A stretch of 64,000 bases of DNA, taken from an uncultured cyanobacterium (GTDB taxonomy: Bacteria; Cyanobacteriota; Cyanobacteriia; Phormidesmidales; Phormidesmidaceae). The number at the start of each line of letters is the position of its first letter. Position 1 is the stretch's first letter. Of the stretch, positions 13,977 to 21,563 are shown piece by piece. The notes beneath the pieces are model-generated. The model did no database searches, had not been told where the DNA came from, and saw nothing but the letters and a program-made list of their open reading frames with translations. Where the stretch lies: the NCBI GenBank assembly GCA_963793265.1, contig CAWBZI010000005.1:370787-434786 (forward strand), given 5' to 3'. The position numbers and the translations under genes were made by a program.

Positions 13977-15344
13977 ATGAAATTGTCTGACAAGCCCCAT
14001 CGCTCTCAAAACGTCGAAACCCCTAGCAGACGTAAAGTACCTTGCTGGCTGCGTCAGTCTATGACTTACGGGCTGATGACAGCGGCGAGTACAGGCACTG
14101 TGCTGCTGCTAACCGGCCAAGAATTCTCTAATAAAGCCCATAATTTTGCCTACGAGCCGCTGCAATACGAGTCCGCTCCTCTCACCACTGGGCAGATCGA
14201 AGGCGCTCAGTACGATCAGGTGCAGCTTGCCGATGAGGCGACGACCAGAACCGCTGCCGATGAGCCTGTGCTGTTGAGCCAGGCAATCGGCACGGAGCGT
14301 CTGATTGGCGGTGCGAACTTTATTGCTTCGGCGGCGGAGCGAGTCGGCCCAGCGGTGGTGCGAATTAATTCAGCGCGTACGGTGACCGCGCGGCGGCGTC
14401 CCAGCATTTTTAACGATCCGTTTTTCCGTGAGTTCTTTGGTGAGCAGGGCATTCCTGAGCAGCCTGCACAACGGGTAGAGCGCGGTACAGGGTCGGGCTT
14501 TATTTTGGATGCGAACGGGACGATTTTGACGAATGCTCACGTGGTAGAAGGCGCTGACGAGGTGACGGTGACCCTCAAGGATGGTCGGGAGCTACGCGGT
14601 GAGGTGATGGGTGAAGATCCGCTGACGGACGTGGCGGTGATTAAGATTGACGCGAGCAATTTGCCGACGGTGAGCATTGGGGATTCGGATGCGCTGCGGC
14701 CTGGGGAATGGGCGATCGCGATCGGTAATCCTTTGGGCCTAGATAATACGGTGACGGCGGGGATCATCAGTGCGACGGGTCGGACGAGCGCTCAGATTCG
14801 TGTGGCTGATAAGCTCGTGGAGTTTATTCAAACGGATGCGGCGATTAATCCGGGTAACTCGGGCGGGCCGCTTTTGAATGACAGCGGTGAGGTGATTGGC
14901 GTGAATACGGCGATTATTGGTGGCGGCGCTCAGGGGCTGGGCTTTGCGATTCCGATTAATCAGGCGCGGGCGATCGCAGGTGAGCTGATTGCAAATGGCA
15001 AGGTCGAGCACGCCTACCTGGGCATTCAGATGCGGACGCTGACCTCGGCGCTGAAAGATGAGATTAATGCCGATCCGAATGCGAATATCAACGTGCAGGC
15101 TGAAGAGGGTGTTGTGATACTAGGGATTGCCCAAGGTTCGCCAGCGGCACAGTCGGGATTGCGTCTGGGGGATGTGATTTTGACGATGGATGGTAAGACG
15201 ATTACGGAGGCGACTGAGGTGCAAAACTTGGTGAAAGCAAAAGCGGTGGGCGATGCGATCGCGGTGAGTGTGAATCGAGGCGGGCAGACGGTGCAGCTTT
15301 CGGTGCGGCCAGGGGCGTATCCTGTTGAGACGACGCGACGCTAG
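13977..15344 (+). CDS. HhoA/HhoB/HtrA-family serine protease with PDZ domain
   Basis: GTGSGFI, TNAHVV, TDVAV and [11 protein letters not shown]-terminal PDZ. Confidence 0.95.
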
Positions 15345-15396
15345 GATCTTGGGGGAGTTGTGCTTGAGTGGTGTGCTTAGCTATTGATACGCTGGA

Positions 15397-15435
15397 GCCC
15401 TCATCCCCAGCCCTTCTCCCCGAGGGAGAAGGGAG
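15397..15435. repeat. cyanobacterial short dispersed repeat
   Basis: gccctcatccccagcccttctcccgagggagaaggga, similar to 49327-49365. Confidence 0.7.
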
Positions 15436-15450
15436 TTAGAGCCTATTTTT

Positions 15451-16230
15451 ATGGATTTCCCTGTTTACTTTCCTCTCGGGCCTGTGCGCCTCCATCCGCA
15501 TTTTGTGATGGAGGCGTTGGCTTATGGGGTGGGTTTGTATGTGAGCTTGTTTCGACGGCTCAGGCAAAAGGATGCGGCCGATCAGATAACCGGATCTCAG
15601 CGGACTTCTATTTCGGTGGGGGCGTTGGTGGGTGCTTTGATTGGCGCGAAGCTACTGGTGACTGTTCAGCATATTGATTTGCTGTGGCAGGACTGGCGGC
15701 TATTTGGGCTGATGGTGCTTCAGGGCAAAACGATTGTGGGGGCTTTGCTGGGCGGCCTGATTAGCGTGGAGGTGACGAAGAAATGGATCGGCGTGCGGCG
15801 CTCTACGGGCGATAGCTTTGTGTATTCGGTGCTGTGGGGAACGGCGATTGGGCGGGTTGGGTGCTTTTTGACGGGGTTGAGCGATCGCACCTACGGCATC
15901 GCTACGTCCTTACCCTGGGGCATTGATTTTGGTGACGGCATTGCGAGGCATCCCACCCAGCTTTATGAGGTAGGTTTTTTAGTGCTGTTATTTTTCGGCT
16001 TGCGGTGGTGCGATGCCAAACCGCGCCGAGAAGGCGACTTATTTAAGATTTATATGATTGCCTACTTGAGCTTTCGCTTTTTTATAGACTTCATCAAACC
16101 TGAATTTCGTCCGCTCCTTGGCCTCAGTGCTATCCAGATTGCCTGTGTGGGTGGGTTAATCTACTACTTTCCCAGCGCTCTACGACTTGTGAGGCAACTG
16201 CGCTCAGATCCTTTAGAAAAACTGCACTAG
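15451..16230 (+). CDS. prolipoprotein diacylglyceryl transferase (Lgt)-like paralogue
   Basis: Polytopic; GKTIVGALLGG, AIGRVGCFLTG, LPWGIDFGDG, RHPTQLYE and RFFIDFIK. Divergent from housekeeping Lgt (GRxGNF). Confidence 0.85.
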   Translation: MDFPVYFPLGPVRLHPHFVMEALAYGVGLYVSLFRRLRQKDAADQITGSQRTSISVGALVGALIGAKLLVTVQHIDLLWQDWRLFGLMVLQGKTIVGALLGGLISVEVTKKWIGVRRSTGDSFVYSVLWGTAIGRVGCFLTGLSDRTYGIATSLPWGIDFGDGIARHPTQLYEVGFLVLLFFGLRWCDAKPRREGDLFKIYMIAYLSFRFFIDFIKPEFRPLLGLSAIQIACVGGLIYYFPSALRLVRQLRSDPLEKLH

Positions 16231-16238
16231 GAACCCTT

Positions 16239-17660
16239 ATGCCTACTCGCCCCTATCTGTTTTATGCCCTGACTAACAGCGTGTGCTCTACGTGCATGAA
16301 TAAGCTAGAGGCCAAGATCATCTTTCGCGATGACAAGGTGTATTTGATTAAGCACTGCCTGATTCACGGGCGCGAGGAGGTGCTGATTGCAGATGACGTG
16401 GCGTATTACAAAAAGTGCAACGCCTTTATTAAGCCTGCGGATATGCCGCTGAAGTTTAATACGCCGATTAAGTACGGCTGTCCTTATGACTGCGGTCTGT
16501 GTCCCGACCATGAGCAACATAGCTGCCTGACTTTAATTGAGGTGACGGATCAGTGCAATCTGGCCTGTCCGATTTGCTATGCCGATTCGGGGGCAGAAAA
16601 TGAGGCGGGCCACGTGCCGCGAAAGCATCGATCTTTGGCGCAGATTGCCGAGATGATGGATGCGATTGTGGCCAATGAAGGGTCGCCGCAGGTGGTGCAG
16701 ATTAGCGGTGGCGAGCCGACGGTGCATCCTGAGTTTTTTGAGATTTTGGATTTGGCGAAAGAAAGGCCGATTCAGCATTTGATGATTAATACAAACGGGG
16801 TGCGGATTGCGAAAGACCGGGCGTTTTGTGAGCGCCTGGCGGAATATATGCCGGGGATTGAGATTTATTTACAGTTCGATAGCTTTGAGGCGGCGGCGCT
16901 GAAGGAGCTACGGGGGGCTGATTTGCGGGAGGTGCGATCGCGCGCGTTATTAAACCTGAATGAGTTCAATATTTCGACTAACCTTGTGGTCACTGTGAAG
17001 AAGGGGCTGAACGATAGCGAGATTGGTAAGATTCTCGATCATGCTTTAGTGCAGAAGTGCGTGCGAGGGGTGACGTTTCAGCCGATTCAGGCGGCGGGAC
17101 GGTTGGAAGGGTTTGAGAAGGGGCGCGATCGCTACACCCTCACCGAAGTTCGCCGCTCCATCCTCGAACAGTCCAACCACTTTCAGCCTGAAGACATCCT
17201 GCCGGTACCCTGCCATCCTGACTGCCTGGCGATGGCCTACGCGCTCAAGGTAAAAGGACAGGTAATTCCTCTAACTAGCCTGATCTCTCCCGAAGCCTAT
17301 GTTGAAACTGTTCCAAACAGCATTTTGTACGAACAAAGCGAAGGCTTAAAGCAAAAGATATTCGATCTCTTTTCTACAAAGCATTCGCCCGCATCGGCAA
17401 CAACCTCACTCAAGCAGCTACTTTGTTGTTTACCTTTACTGCCCACGCCCGCAGGCATCACCTACGAAAACGTTTTTCGCATCACAATCGTACAGTTTCT
17501 AGACGCTTATAACTTTGACGTACGCTCGGTTAAGCGTTCCTGCATTCATATCGTGCATCCCGACGGGCGCATTATTCCTTTTGATACGTTCAATATGTTT
17601 TACCGCGAAGGAAGTGCGGGCCATCATTTGGTGACTAATCGAGAGATGGTATCTCAATAG
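16239..17660 (+). CDS. radical SAM enzyme, Tes/GDGT-MAS (MJ0619-like) family
   Basis: N-terminal CxxC..CxxH, GCPYDCGLCPDH, SAM cluster CNLACPIC, SGGEPT, IYLQFD, RGVTFQP, PCHPDC and DAYNFD..KRSCIH..DGRIIPF. Confidence 0.8.
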   Translation: MPTRPYLFYALTNSVCSTCMNKLEAKIIFRDDKVYLIKHCLIHGREEVLIADDVAYYKKCNAFIKPADMPLKFNTPIKYGCPYDCGLCPDHEQHSCLTLIEVTDQCNLACPICYADSGAENEAGHVPRKHRSLAQIAEMMDAIVANEGSPQVVQISGGEPTVHPEFFEILDLAKERPIQHLMINTNGVRIAKDRAFCERLAEYMPGIEIYLQFDSFEAAALKELRGADLREVRSRALLNLNEFNISTNLVVTVKKGLNDSEIGKILDHALVQKCVRGVTFQPIQAAGRLEGFEKGRDRYTLTEVRRSILEQSNHFQPEDILPVPCHPDCLAMAYALKVKGQVIPLTSLISPEAYVETVPNSILYEQSEGLKQKIFDLFSTKHSPASATTSLKQLLCCLPLLPTPAGITYENVFRITIVQFLDAYNFDVRSVKRSCIHIVHPDGRIIPFDTFNMFYREGSAGHHLVTNREMVSQ

Positions 17661-17693
17661 GCTGTTGGTTGTGACGCAAATAAGGAGAAAGCT

Positions 17694-18017
17694 ATGGAAC
17701 GTCGAAATAGAAGATGGGAAGTGCTGCAGGGCATATTGTTGCTGTTTGGTTTTCACATCCTAGTATGGGGGCTGGTATGGCTTGTATCATATCTATTCAC
17801 GTTTCTACTTGGCATCTCTTCTTTGGCCCTTGTGTCGTCCGTTTTGTTCGTAGGCATTGGATTGTCACAGCTTTTTTACGTTTTGCCGCTATGCCTGTGG
17901 CTACAACGACGTGGCCGTGCCGAGCTTGCAAAAGGCGTCGTGATTGGCGCTGTAATTACTTTTCTGCTGAACGGTAGTTGTTTCGCATTCGTTCTGTATT
18001 CTCTTAATAATTATTAG
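17694..18017 (+). CDS. small 3-TM membrane protein with C-terminal LNGSC
   Basis: AGGAG RBS; hydrophobic; paralogous to the next gene. Confidence 0.8.
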   Translation: MERRNRRWEVLQGILLLFGFHILVWGLVWLVSYLFTFLLGISSLALVSSVLFVGIGLSQLFYVLPLCLWLQRRGRAELAKGVVIGAVITFLLNGSCFAFVLYSLNNY

Positions 18018-18032
18018 GGCTTTGTCCTGTCG

Positions 18033-18080
18033 AGAACTGTCCTACAGCGGGAGCTGAAAGCCCATACAAGCCGGTTTGAG
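18033..18080 (+). repeat. 48-bp repeat, copy 1 (degenerate hairpin)
   Basis: 35/48 identical to 18508-18555 by manual ungapped alignment. Confidence 0.7.
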
Positions 18081-18123
18081 GCTATCTCGGCTTTAATACT
18101 AGCGATATCTGTGAGGTAAGTTT

Positions 18124-18483
18124 ATGAAAGACAACTTCTTCAGCCGTGCTTTAAAGCGCGTTATGATGTTTCCAAAAAATCTCTCAGTTGGAGTAGACAA
18201 AGGCATAGGCTGGTTACTGCTGTGCCATCTATTAGCTGAGGCGCTACTGCTAACGGTAGGTGTGTCGATGTCGCCCATCATGATAGGCAGCTATCCGTCA
18301 GATGAGCTGTTATTGGCCGCTATGCTTTGTATTGGCATCACACAGCTAATCTATGCCATTCCGCTTTGCCTATGGTGTGCCTCTCGCAGACGCTTTGAGA
18401 CGATGAAGGGCGTTTTAATCGGTATGCTGATCACGGCTTTTTTGAACGGGACTTGCTTTCTCGGCGTGGTGCTGACTGGATGA
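18124..18483 (+). CDS. small 3-TM membrane protein with C-terminal LNGTC
   Basis: GAGG RBS; shares IGxxQLxYxxPLCLW...KGVxIGxxITxxLNGxCF with 17694..18017. Confidence 0.8.
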   Translation: MKDNFFSRALKRVMMFPKNLSVGVDKGIGWLLLCHLLAEALLLTVGVSMSPIMIGSYPSDELLLAAMLCIGITQLIYAIPLCLWCASRRRFETMKGVLIGMLITAFLNGTCFLGVVLTG

Positions 18484-18507
18484 CTGCTTTGTTGCATTCT
18501 TTTAATA

Positions 18508-18555
18508 AGAACCGACTTATAGCGCGAACTGCAAATCTGTATAAGCCGGTTCGAG
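18508..18555 (+). terminator. 48-bp repeat, copy 2; hairpin between convergent genes
   Basis: Stem gaaccgacttata/tataagccggttc. Confidence 0.6.
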
Positions 18556-18561
18556 TGGGCT

Positions 18562-18864
18562 TTAATTACACGGTTTGCGTAGCAGGCTGATGGCTTCGCT
18601 TTGAGCAGGCGAAATGGTCAGCGGTTCTTCAATCGTTAGAACAGGCGTCCATAGGATCGTTTCGGCATAGTGCAGGGTGTGTAGCAAATGAATGGTTTGC
18701 TGGATTGCGCTGGGAGAGCCTAGCAGTATGTGCCGGATATGTTCTTTGGAGGGTGTGCCATCGGCGGTGAGTTGTACGGCAGTTCTCAGGGCCGATGCGT
18801 CAGTCTGAAGTAGCCCTGTGCCTGTGCCTGTAGGCTCAGCGGTCAATAAATATGAGGGTTTCAT
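18562..18864 (-). CDS. small cyanobacterial hypothetical protein
   Basis: ATG 18864 after GGAG; IRHILLGSPSAIQQTIHLLHTLHYAETILW. Confidence 0.7.
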   Translation of the reverse strand: MKPSYLLTAEPTGTGTGLLQTDASALRTAVQLTADGTPSKEHIRHILLGSPSAIQQTIHLLHTLHYAETILWTPVLTIEEPLTISPAQSEAISLLRKPCN

Positions 18865-19665: not shown

Positions 19666-21563
19666 CTGAGTTCGGCGGGAGGGGCACCGCCAGAGTTAAG
19701 CACCCCTAACAATTTGCCTGTGAGTAATGTCAGCGTGTTTGTTGGTCGCGATGACGACTCGCGGGCGGTGGATGCTTTGCTGATGGAAAATCAGCAGGCT
19801 AATATTGCGGCGGCTGTGGGCATGGGCGGCGTGGGCAAAACGGAGCTGGCTTTGCAGTATGCGCGGTGGCGCGGCGAGGCGTTTGCAGGTGGGGTGTGCT
19901 GGCTGCGAGGGATAGAGCCGATTGCCTCGCAGATTGTGGGTTTTGCGCAGGCTTATTTGAATTTGGATGTGCCGGAGCAGGTGGATAATCCGGTGGCCTG
20001 GTGCCTTCAGCGGTGGCCGAATACGGGAGCCAGAAAAGGGCCGGTGCTGATGGTGGTAGACGACGTGCAGGACTATGGCGCGCTGAAGGCGATGCTGCCG
20101 AGTAGCGGGCGGTTTCGGGTGCTGCTGACGACGCGGCGGGCGATTTTGCCAGTGGGGCAGCGGTTGGCGCTTGCGGTGCTGATGCCGGGGGCGGCGCTGT
20201 TGCTGCTGAAAAGCCTGGTGGGTGCGGCGCGGGTTGAGGCGGAGATAGCAGAGGCAGCGGCGCTGTGCGAGTGGGTGGGGCGGCTGCCGCTGGGCATTGA
20301 GCTGGTGGGCTGATATTTGTCGGAGCGGCCTGAGCTGACGGTGGCGAGGTTGTGATACAGCGGCTAGAAGATAAGCGGCTGGCGGCTAGGGCGCTGATGG
20401 AAACGCATCCAGAGATGACGGCGACGTTGGGCGTGGCGGCGGCGTTTGAGGTGAGCTGGGAGCCGCTGTCGGCAGAGGCAAAGATGCTAGCCGGGCTGTT
20501 GGGGCTGTTTGCGGCTGCGCCTGTGGCGTGGGAATGGGTGCAGCGGGCTTGCGAGCAGGCGGCGGTGCTGGATGAGGAAGCTTTAGAAGATGGGCAGGCG
20601 GCGTTGCTGCGGGTGAATTTGCTGCAAAAGCAAGGGGTGCAGGGTGAATTGCGCTATCAGGTGCATCCGCTGGTGCGGGAATCCTTTGGGATGAAGCGAG
20701 CGGATTTGGCAGAGGCTGAGGCTTTGCAGCGGGGCTTTGCGAAGGCGATGACGGATGTGGCGAAGGCGATACCGCCAGTTGTGACGCTAGATGTACGAGC
20801 GTGGGTGGTCGTGGCTGTGCCGCATTTCGAAGAAGTGACGCAGCGGTGGACAGAGGTTTTGAGCGGCGGTGACAAAACTTGGTGCTGTACGGGACTATCG
20901 CGGTTTTATGAAAGTTTGAGCCAGTGGGACGAGGCGGAGCAGAGCTATAAGAATGCCCTCAAAATTAGTAAAGAGCAGTTAGGCGATCGCCATCCTGACA
21001 CCGCTAGTAGTCTGAATAACTTGGCGTTACTGTATCGTTCGCGGGGCCAGTATGCAGCCGCAGAACCGTTGTATGTAGAAGCGCTGGAAATCTGCAAAAC
21101 AGAGCTGGGCGATCGCCATCCTGCCACCGCTACGAGTCTGAACAACTTGGCGTTACTGTACGAGTCGCAGGGCCAGTATGCCGCCGCAGAACCGTTGTAT
21201 GTAGAAGCGCTGGAAATCTGTAAAACAGAGCTGGGCGATCGCCATTCTGTCACCGCTACAAGTCTGAACAACTTGGCGGGACTGTATCGTTCGCAGGGCC
21301 GGTATGCAGCCGCAGAACCGTTGTATGTAGAAGCGCTGGAAATTAGCAAAACAGAGCTGGGCGATCGCCATCCTGACACCGCTGGAAGTTTGTTCAATTT
21401 TGCCGCGCTTTACTACCAAACCCAGCGACATCAACAAGCCCTATCTTATATCCAACAGGCCTTAGACATCTACGTTCAAAAGCTAGGTTCCGAGCATCCA
21501 AATACACAAGCCGCCCATAGCTGGCTTCTATCCATTCAACAGGCAATTGATGGGTCTGCGTAG
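19666..21563 (+). pseudogene. NB-ARC/STAND ATPase-TPR (NLR-like) gene, disrupted
   Basis: PNNLP..FVGR, Walker A GMGGVGKT, Walker B LMVVDD, LLTTR and GRLPLGI; premature TGA at 20311-20313 (ELVG*YL) and a frameshift near 20350; TPR repeats follow. Confidence 0.85.
20982..21385 (+). repeat. 126-bp intragenic tandem repeats (42-aa TPR units)
   Basis: Units begin at 20982, 21108, 21234 and 21360, each with GGCGATCGCCAT (HIP1 site). Confidence 0.9.

Follow-up and report, generated by a model that had tools for sequence, protein, structure and literature searches.

The locus considered here lies in a window of 64,000 nucleotides (nt), the whole stretch of DNA that was analysed, from an uncultured cyanobacterium of the family Phormidesmidaceae (assembly GCA_963793265.1, contig CAWBZI010000005.1, positions 370,787-434,786 of the forward strand). 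It consists of four genes, all encoded on the plus strand: a paralogue of the Lgt family (LgtL; 15451-16230, 259 amino acids (aa)), a Tes/GDGT-MAS-like radical S-adenosylmethionine (SAM) enzyme (rSAM; 16239-17660, 473 aa) and two small membrane proteins of a type with three transmembrane (TM) helices, namely sm1 (17694-18017, 107 aa, with Cys96 in ...FLLNGSCF...) and its paralogue sm2 (18124-18483, 119 aa, with ...FLNGTCF...). The intergenic gaps are 8, 33 and 106 nt, and Shine-Dalgarno-like sequences precede both small genes (AAGGAG 5' of sm1 and GAGG 5' of sm2). An earlier interpretation made from the letters alone (hereafter the sequence-only reading) had described four co-directional genes with precisely these gaps, in agreement with the list of open reading frames (ORFs), and had gone on to suggest that a dedicated Lgt lipidates the small proteins while a Tes-like enzyme crosslinks or cyclises the attached acyl tails.

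LgtL is readily recovered by the Pfam LGT model PF01790 (94.3 bits, compared with a gathering score of 24.9) and remains below both NCBIfam equivalog cut-offs for lgt (55.2 versus 118.9 for TIGR00544; 71.8 versus 334 for NF000778). The genome encodes only one other PF01790 protein, the canonical Lgt, on a different contig (G000:C1; 274 bits, as against 94 for LgtL), along with a single copy of lspA that is also situated away from the four-gene locus. Hence, LgtL is an extra, specialised copy rather than the sole lgt of the organism, and the separate housekeeping gene presumed by the sequence-only reading does exist. A structural model of LgtL (AlphaFold2, built from an alignment of 13 orthologues; pLDDT 84.6, pTM 0.82) recovered Escherichia coli Lgt in a Foldseek search of the PDB (5azb, E 1.5e-6, probability 1.00, TMq 0.62), with no other chain at E <= 0.001. 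The residues H17, K93, T94, G134, R135, G137, C138, R166-H167-P168, Y205 and R209 are invariant across the 13 orthologues. LgtL was further aligned to E. coli Lgt, whose numbering is used below for Y26, H103, R143, N146 and the like, and to the housekeeping Lgt of the same genome. The available sections of PMC13251419 give Y26, H103, R143, N146, G154 and R239 as essential in the E. coli enzyme; among these, the phosphate-binding arginines R143 and R239 are retained as R135 and R209 in 13 of 13 orthologues, and G154 probably corresponds to G149 of LgtL, the two being aligned only across a three-residue gap. Y235 and the RHP[ST]QLYE motif of Lgt are retained as well, whereas the subfamily has its own GKT[IV]VG motif and a periplasmic head of reduced length. 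LgtL therefore has the Lgt fold together with the lipid-phosphate-binding arginines, but it is not a canonical Lgt.

The adjacent enzyme combines PF23545, the zinc ribbon of HMPTM/GDGT-MAS, with the radical SAM domain PF04055 and is homologous over its full length to the GDGT-MAS/Tes structure 7tol (phmmer E 1.6e-62, 215 bits, residues 12-457). Its four-domain layout is Tes-like, with a rubredoxin-like zinc ribbon, an N-terminal cluster motif, a CX3CX2C radical SAM core and a C-terminal domain. It nevertheless falls below the NCBIfam equivalog cut-offs of both TrsS (NF045646; 315.4 versus 490) and Tes (NF045702; 277.4 versus 450), and nine orthologues from other phyla score in similar ranges (307-330 bits for TrsS and 259-299 bits for Tes); judged by these profile scores, the family is a third clade beside Tes and TrsS that NCBIfam leaves unnamed. 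The closest relatives of the enzyme are cyanobacterial. The 58 near-full-length orthologues share eleven invariant cysteines (40, 81, 85, 88, 96, 106, 110, 113, 325, 396 and 397), with Cys 16, 19 and 435 present in 57 of the 58. The rubredoxin-like site, the [4Fe-4S]N motif and the CX3CX2C motif of Tes are all kept, aligning respectively with C9/C12/C33, C73/C77/C80 and the RS motif of 7tol (Tes residue numbers follow PMC9433317; the 7tol chain is offset by +20). The C-terminal domain carries a conserved cysteine set of its own, comprising Cys 325, 396 and 397 in 58/58 sequences and Cys 435 in 57/58, and the first three of these could bind a cluster. The JGI label of this family, '7,8-dihydro-6-hydroxymethylpterin dimethyltransferase', was rejected as an indication of methanopterin methylase activity because it stems from MJ0619, which the available text of PMC9433317 shows to be GDGT-MAS. 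True TrsS genes, of which 251 Acidobacteriota genomes contain two, are 28-31% identical to rSAM, and no LgtL was present near either of them within the 7.7-11.4 kb surveyed.

The two small proteins are 25/43 identical over their two C-terminal helices (BLASTP, E 2e-16), where they share the stretch IG..QL.Y..PLCLW...KGV.IG..IT..LNG[ST]CF. Each begins with a basic N-terminus and continues through two hydrophobic helices and a loop that is strongly basic (RRGRAELAKG in sm1) to a third helix bearing LLNG[ST]C[F], after which comes a tail of 7-11 mostly hydrophobic residues. Cys96 of sm1 follows the basic loop by 16 residues, so that the C-terminal cysteines are predicted by the positive-inside rule to face the outer side of the membrane. 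Neither Pfam nor NCBIfam yielded anything above chance-level matches for these proteins (E ~0.007), and a word-based search recovered only four relatives; the nearest clusters in the Protein Atlas are unnamed cyanobacterial proteins lacking a Pfam family, one of them automatically named 'Lipoprotein family protein'. A hidden Markov model (HMM) derived from an alignment of 22 small proteins gathered from neighbouring loci, sm1 included (A1), retrieved, from 1.84 billion representatives, 1251 clusters (50% identity) at E <= 0.001, with 349 of them reaching E <= 1e-10; in the present genome it matches exactly two proteins, sm1 and sm2. Longer proteins in which the small protein is fused to other sequence were sought without success, a negative result of little weight.

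The C-terminal cysteine is the sole invariant column of the A1 alignment and is present in 144 of 156 aligned stretches from the best 154 family sequences, where the consensus reads A-L-L-N-G-[GSAT]-C-[FWY]-[LIV]; the conservation proposed for this residue is thus confirmed. The motif noted as common to sm1 and sm2 is indeed shared by them, but the cysteine of its PLCLW segment varies among relatives (PLYLR, PVVLK and others). That residue was accordingly discarded as a functional candidate, the C-terminal cysteine being the only one kept. In the 144 representatives with the cysteine, position -1 is G, S, A or T in 132 and position -2 is G in 125, both being small as in a lipobox. By a heuristic measure, the cysteine typically comes 15-22 uncharged residues after a lysine or arginine, a spacing that matches the geometry of lipoprotein signals. 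To this extent the likeness to a lipoprotein signal placed at the C-terminus, which the sequence-only reading had pointed out, holds.

A sample of 301 Cyanobacteriota genomes, used alike for the rSAM, LgtL and A1 searches, reveals a strong association between these genes. An rSAM orthologue occurs in 25 genomes (a 26th match, at 1.6e-53, is a distant paralogue) and LgtL in 24, with 23 containing both. rSAM lacks LgtL in two genomes, one 95% complete (G004) and the other 66% complete (G118). The only LgtL without an rSAM orthologue, in a genome that is 99% complete (G242:C3:3577151-3577888), contains an in-frame TAA and looks like a decaying remnant of the module. In four genomes LgtL and rSAM lie on separate contigs or far apart, and both are still present. 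The pairing is thus near one-to-one, while only ~8% of the sampled Cyanobacteriota carry the gene set, although these counts overstate the statistical weight of the association because related genomes are not independent. Strong A1 matches (E <= 1e-13) are found in 14 of the 301 genomes, 13 of which also have rSAM.

The association extends well beyond the phylum. Patterns derived from the LgtL alignment recovered 599 matching stretches in contigs representing one genome per species, of which 594 were confirmed, and the best 80 loci were analysed. By record label these span more than 10 phyla, including Cyanobacteria, Acidobacteriota, Bacteroidota (Mucilaginibacter, Chitinophagales), Bacillota (Paenibacillus, Cohnella, Fictibacillus, Saccharibacillus), Planctomycetota (Tepidisphaeraceae, Phycisphaerae), Verrucomicrobiota, Opitutales, Gammaproteobacteria (Frateuria, Oleiagrimonas), Omnitrophota, Eisenbacteria, a Thermochlorobacter metagenome-assembled genome (MAG) and four archaeal MAGs. 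Going by the record titles, we have the impression that many of these loci belong to bacteria from soil or to cyanobacteria that are terrestrial or filamentous. An rSAM gene, 51-91% identical to that of the window at the protein level, lies downstream of LgtL on the same strand in 71 of the 80 loci. Nine loci have no adjacent rSAM; in all five of the corresponding genomes that were checked the enzyme is encoded elsewhere, with a small Cys protein directly beside it. In a contig labelled as a Verrucomicrobiota MAG the two enzymes form a single 753-aa protein (L094:4001-6259), with NCBIfam matches to Lgt over residues 45-245 and to rSAM over residues 299-737; the order of this fusion fits the cytoplasmic C-terminus of Lgt, which would place the radical SAM domains on that side of the membrane. 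All-against-all clustering of the neighbours uncovered no other conserved partner, lspA and lnt included. A chance neighbourhood of the four genes was rejected in view of the co-occurrence of LgtL and rSAM and their natural fusion.

LgtL-rSAM pairs are also seen on MAG contigs labelled as archaeal, namely L079 (Halobacteriales), L103 (Thermoplasmatota), L104 (Thalassarchaeaceae) and L111 (Euryarchaeota), these assignments being labels only, with misbinning possible. Lgt is stated to be absent from archaea in the available sections of PMC13251419.

These distributions bear on a simple alternative, namely that LgtL does no more than duplicate the general prolipoprotein diacylglyceryl transferase and is unrelated to its neighbours. 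Its PF01790 domain and Lgt fold agree with such a role, and second copies do occur: according to the accessible text of PMC13251419, about 1,300 genomes possess two copies of lgt, and residual lipoprotein labelling in an lgt mutant of Mycobacterium smegmatis has been ascribed to a second homologue (bioRxiv 10.1101/2025.01.07.631728, as excerpted). Given the almost one-to-one occurrence of LgtL and rSAM, their adjacency in 71 of 80 loci, their fusion in one and the subfamily-wide replacement of three essential Lgt residues, we consider simple redundancy very improbable.

The third component of the locus shows a different kind of conservation. A1 matches adjoin the pair in 25 of the 80 loci (21 of them with E <= 1e-9), and other loci have unrelated small membrane ORFs beside the pair with the same ending, comprising a helix, small residues and a cysteine. 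Mucilaginibacter has ...LIGFS[ST]C..., usually on two proteins in tandem; the Gammaproteobacteria have ...LLLVAACFG..., the Bacillota ...FLLNA[AS]C[FY]G..., and the MAG labelled Halobacteriales both ...LLFGLCFY... and ...LVTTCFAL.... In Acidobacteriota, ORFs located between LgtL and rSAM carry ...LGAGSCFG..., ...LGGGSCFG... or ...AITCCGGG... where their first helix ends. Further cases are a zinc-ribbon protein of Saccharibacillus ending in ...LLLAICGG... and a 187-aa protein of a Phycisphaerae MAG with a textbook lipoprotein signal (...LALVGC), the latter encoded between LgtL and rSAM. In an Opitutales MAG (L110) one LgtL-rSAM pair is surrounded by five or more small membrane ORFs that end in this helix-small-Cys fashion. 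Among the Cyanobacteriota sampled, the non-photosynthetic sister classes have a protein of 61-89 aa encoded directly upstream of the pair at 6 of 19 loci (L041:8054-8239, L042:7380-7583, L044:7308-7577, L045:5782-5997, L046:3033-3239 and L047:7312-7527). It displays an N-terminal signal anchor ending in WFA[ST]xAC followed by a proline-rich tail with two further cysteines, and the three-helix type is sometimes present in addition. Across 60 small Cys ORFs the longest run free of K, R, D and E before the cysteine has a median length of 17 residues and usually follows a lysine or arginine, as estimated by a heuristic that chose another cysteine in several cases. Given that one motif appears on many scaffolds, with the number of such genes per locus varying from 0 to 5 or more, the small proteins resemble substrates more than fixed subunits.

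The neighbourhood survey therefore extends to other genomes the link, first noticed in the window, between small Cys proteins and lgt-rSAM pairs. Since these proteins are linked to the pair elsewhere, their cysteine is conserved and a second lgt is present in the genome, comparative genomics lends good support to a functional unit composed of a dedicated Lgt-like enzyme, a Tes-like enzyme and a membrane protein with the cysteine.

As to what this unit does, we tentatively favour, at somewhat less than an even chance, a conserved multi-phylum module in which LgtL lipidates the cysteine of the small membrane proteins and rSAM then modifies the lipid tails. In this scheme the C-terminal cysteine would be the lipid acceptor, to which LgtL would attach a glycerolipid, presumably drawn from a phospholipid donor; rSAM would act on the attached rather than the free lipid, by C-C coupling, macrocyclisation or some other functionalisation of sp3 C-H bonds. 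A dedicated protein-lipidation pathway best explains the joint presence of an Lgt fold with its arginines, an enzyme of the type that acts on lipid tails, a near-obligate pairing of the two, their fusion and a convergent Cys tag, and we infer the succession of Cys lipidation and radical tail chemistry from these comparisons. Two published observations can be counted in its favour: a natural N146C Lgt of Leptospira interrogans complements E. coli, if only partly (PMC13251419), and GDGT-MAS binds phospholipid tails and abstracts hydrogen from their terminal carbons (PMC9433317), both as given in the available parts of these papers.

A number of observations weigh against this proposal, the first of which concern the enzymes themselves. 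At three of the six positions that are essential in E. coli Lgt, LgtL has a different residue (H17 for Y26, V96 for H103 and C138 for N146), each replacement being invariant across the subfamily, and the same Y26H/N146C variant in MSMEG_5408 of M. smegmatis is described as having 'presumed low Lgt activity' in the accessible text of PMC13251419. In rSAM, the C-terminal cluster ligands of Tes C438, M439, C455 and C470 are aligned with I, V, S and D, and only C456 is kept, as C435. In Tes this [4Fe-4S] cluster is held by three cysteines and a labile Met439 beside the lipid pocket, and carries a lipid-sulfur intermediate (PMC9433317 and PMC13459092, available sections). In light of the conserved cysteines that rSAM has in the same domain, the alignment indicates that the C-terminal cluster site is rewired and not simply lost. 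With only C456 of the Tes ligands remaining, coupling chemistry of the Tes cluster-sulfur type is not assured in rSAM, and the suggestion that it crosslinks acyl tails as Tes does is an analogy rather than a statement of membership. Thus, of the dedicated Lgt plus Tes-like crosslinking system advanced by the sequence-only reading, the three-part unit stands, whereas the coupling is carried by analogy and the transferase is short of half of the essential Lgt residues.

Further difficulties concern the presumed acceptor. Its cysteine departs from a lipobox in having asparagine at position -3 in 116 of 144 representatives and F, W or Y at +1 in 132 of 144, and an N-terminal signal peptide closing with the pattern [LVI][ASTVI][GAS]C is not found, as the motif sits on the third, C-terminal helix; the lipoprotein-like signal is to this degree non-canonical. 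The Cys column holds another residue in 7/156 representatives and a gap in 5/156, and the Q, Y and P of the second helix (TM2) and the G of the third (TM3) are 97-99% conserved as compared with 92% for the cysteine, so that a structural partner fits as well as a substrate. The distribution has exceptions too. Three of the 25 rSAM-bearing cyanobacterial genomes show no candidate small Cys protein near the pair (G038, G248 and G100), A1 was negative throughout all five genomes searched (one of which has a truncated candidate at a contig end), and a genome that is 99% complete has an A1-type gene (G290:C50:68066-68332, E 1.3e-13) with neither LgtL nor rSAM detected.

Several of these points are shared with the main rival explanation, under which LgtL and rSAM would remodel a membrane glycerolipid that is not attached to protein, by tail-to-tail coupling or macrocyclisation as in Tes and Mss or by another functionalisation of the tails, with LgtL serving as a lipid-binding or head-group-transfer partner and the small proteins having an accessory role as subunits, scaffolds or regulators rather than being acceptors. 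A pair lacking a detectable small protein in some genomes, an LgtL-rSAM fusion that needs no third partner, and TM2 residues that are more conserved than a cysteine missing from a few members all sit comfortably with such a pathway. GDGT-MAS, moreover, works on free phospholipids (PMC9433317), and for the Tes homologues of bacteria a role in making membrane-spanning lipids has been put forward (PMC8941075, PMC13159169), according to the portions of these papers at hand. Remodelling of free lipid, however, leaves unexplained both the convergence of unrelated small scaffolds on a helix-small-Cys ending and the constant partnership with a member of a Cys-alkylating family, and a complement of 0 to at least 5 small genes per locus would be unusual for a stoichiometric subunit. 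On balance we regard it as possible but somewhat doubtful.

Two remaining difficulties for the protein-lipidation module relate to where the components meet. Whenever LgtL is unlinked, the small gene stays with rSAM and not with LgtL (8 of 8 cases: L043, L047, L048 and L136-L140). Radical SAM enzymes must operate in the cytoplasm. The cysteine is predicted to lie near the outer leaflet, on the opposite face from a cytoplasmic rSAM, and how the two would meet is left unexplained by the proposed scheme. The first of these points would be accommodated by direct radical C-S coupling, which ranks next after the free-lipid pathway among the alternatives: rSAM would join an unactivated lipid carbon to the sulfur of the small-protein cysteine in the manner of a sactisynthase, echoing the lipid-sulfur-cluster intermediate of Tes, while LgtL supplied or held the lipid. 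With conserved C-terminal cysteines of its own instead of the Tes ligands, rSAM could have a site free for the substrate thiolate, and the Tes mechanism itself proceeds via a C-S bond, as described in the available sections of PMC9433317 and PMC13459092. The same topology, however, speaks against direct coupling, in that a cysteine 16 residues past a cytoplasmic loop would be far from a cytoplasmic enzyme, and the conserved phosphate-binding arginines of LgtL would have no clear role; we hold it to be quite unlikely.

The conjectural nature of the chemistry, the replaced Lgt residues, the missing Tes ligands, the conservation of TM2 above that of the cysteine and the location of the cysteine on the opposite face keep our preference for cysteine lipidation followed by tail modification at the tentative level given above. 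A more specific form of this proposal is that the module installs a new modification, found in more than 10 bacterial phyla and some archaeal MAGs, in which the tails of a Cys-linked glycerolipid are welded together or to a lipid of the opposite leaflet, yielding a macrocyclic or membrane-spanning 'bola-lipoprotein' anchor. This version is speculative, and we consider it unlikely as it stands.

The wider surroundings of the locus include, upstream of LgtL, a gene for an HtrA-type protease (13977-15344; Pfam Trypsin_2 and PDZ) and, downstream, an unrelated minus-strand ORF. Between the HtrA-like gene and LgtL, at 15411-15433, lies an inverted repeat of 10 bp without mismatches, CCCTTCTCCC / GGGAGAAGGG, whose arms enclose a loop of 3 nt, and the T-run that follows it stops exactly at the LgtL start codon. 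This repeat, which a consensus scan did not flag, may be the terminator of the upstream HtrA-like gene; over 15200-18800 the scan for promoter and terminator consensus sites gave no more sites than shuffled sequence. Farther downstream, at 19714-21563, two adjoining plus-strand ORFs 38 nt apart encode a 199-aa product with a GMGGVGKTELA P-loop and a 403-aa product with a repeated TPR-like ...SLNNLALLY... motif, and from their translations look like one NB-ARC/TPR-type gene broken in two. ORF translations also reveal a DnaA-like and a CP43/IsiA-like ORF in the window.

Lgt, with which bacterial lipoprotein biogenesis begins, is a target for drugs, and the reaction carried out by Tes ranks among the hardest C-C couplings known. 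Each part of the module comes from a known superfamily, but a system composed in this way has not been described in the papers covered: full-text literature searches found no published link between an Lgt homologue and a Tes-like radical SAM enzyme and no characterised pathway of this kind, as the sequence-only reading had surmised. With E. coli Lgt (5AZB/5AZC) LgtL shares its fold, PF01790, R143, R239, Y235, the RHP[ST]QLYE motif and a cytoplasmic C-terminus, and the presumed acceptor cysteine, like that of an Lgt substrate, follows a basic stretch and a hydrophobic helix. LgtL differs from it in the substitutions Y26H, H103V, N146C and E151L, in the GKT[IV]VG motif and in a much shorter periplasmic head, as well as in its near one-to-one pairing with rSAM, its coexistence with a canonical lgt and a Cys motif that is not a lipobox. 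The combination of Y26H and N146C constitutes the LgtL signature and recurs in the published description of MSMEG_5408, the second Lgt homologue of M. smegmatis; unlike LgtL, that protein is described with no link to a radical SAM enzyme or a Cys-bearing miniprotein, and the available sections of that study note the N146C/Y26H variant with no genomic context and no mention of radical SAM proteins (PMC13251419).

Compared with Tes/GDGT-MAS (Methanocaldococcus jannaschii MJ0619, 7TOL/7TOM), rSAM has the CxxC...CxxH head, GCPYDCGLCP, CX3CX2C and the C-terminal end ...DAYNFD...R.CIH...IIPF. It is distinguished by C438I, M439V, C455S and C470D as aligned, by its own Cys 325/396/397/435, and by its occurrence, together with LgtL, in organisms, cyanobacteria among them, from which tetraethers are not known. 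The radical SAM (seleno)protein TrsS (NF045646) is its best-scoring NCBIfam model and belongs to the same Tes-like superfamily, but rSAM lies below the cut-off and true TrsS loci have no LgtL nearby. By description, rSAM may also be likened to Mss of Thermotoga, which is likewise a radical SAM enzyme and for which the coupling of bacterial acyl tails has been proposed; in contrast to the LgtL-rSAM module, Mss is described with neither an Lgt-like nor a Cys-miniprotein partner in the accessible text of PMC13459092. The Tes literature refers to bacterial homologues of unknown role, with no mention of cyanobacteria or Lgt in the available portions of PMC8941075, PMC13459092 and PMC9433317. The module thus ties together two orphans already in print, the Y26H/N146C paralogues of Lgt and the bacterial Tes homologues of organisms without tetraethers, and connects both to a family of Cys-bearing miniproteins, so that a hypothesis open to direct testing is available for each of the three. 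A protein-linked, tail-modified lipid, should that be the product, would represent a new class of membrane anchor and a new class of substrate for radical SAM lipid chemistry.

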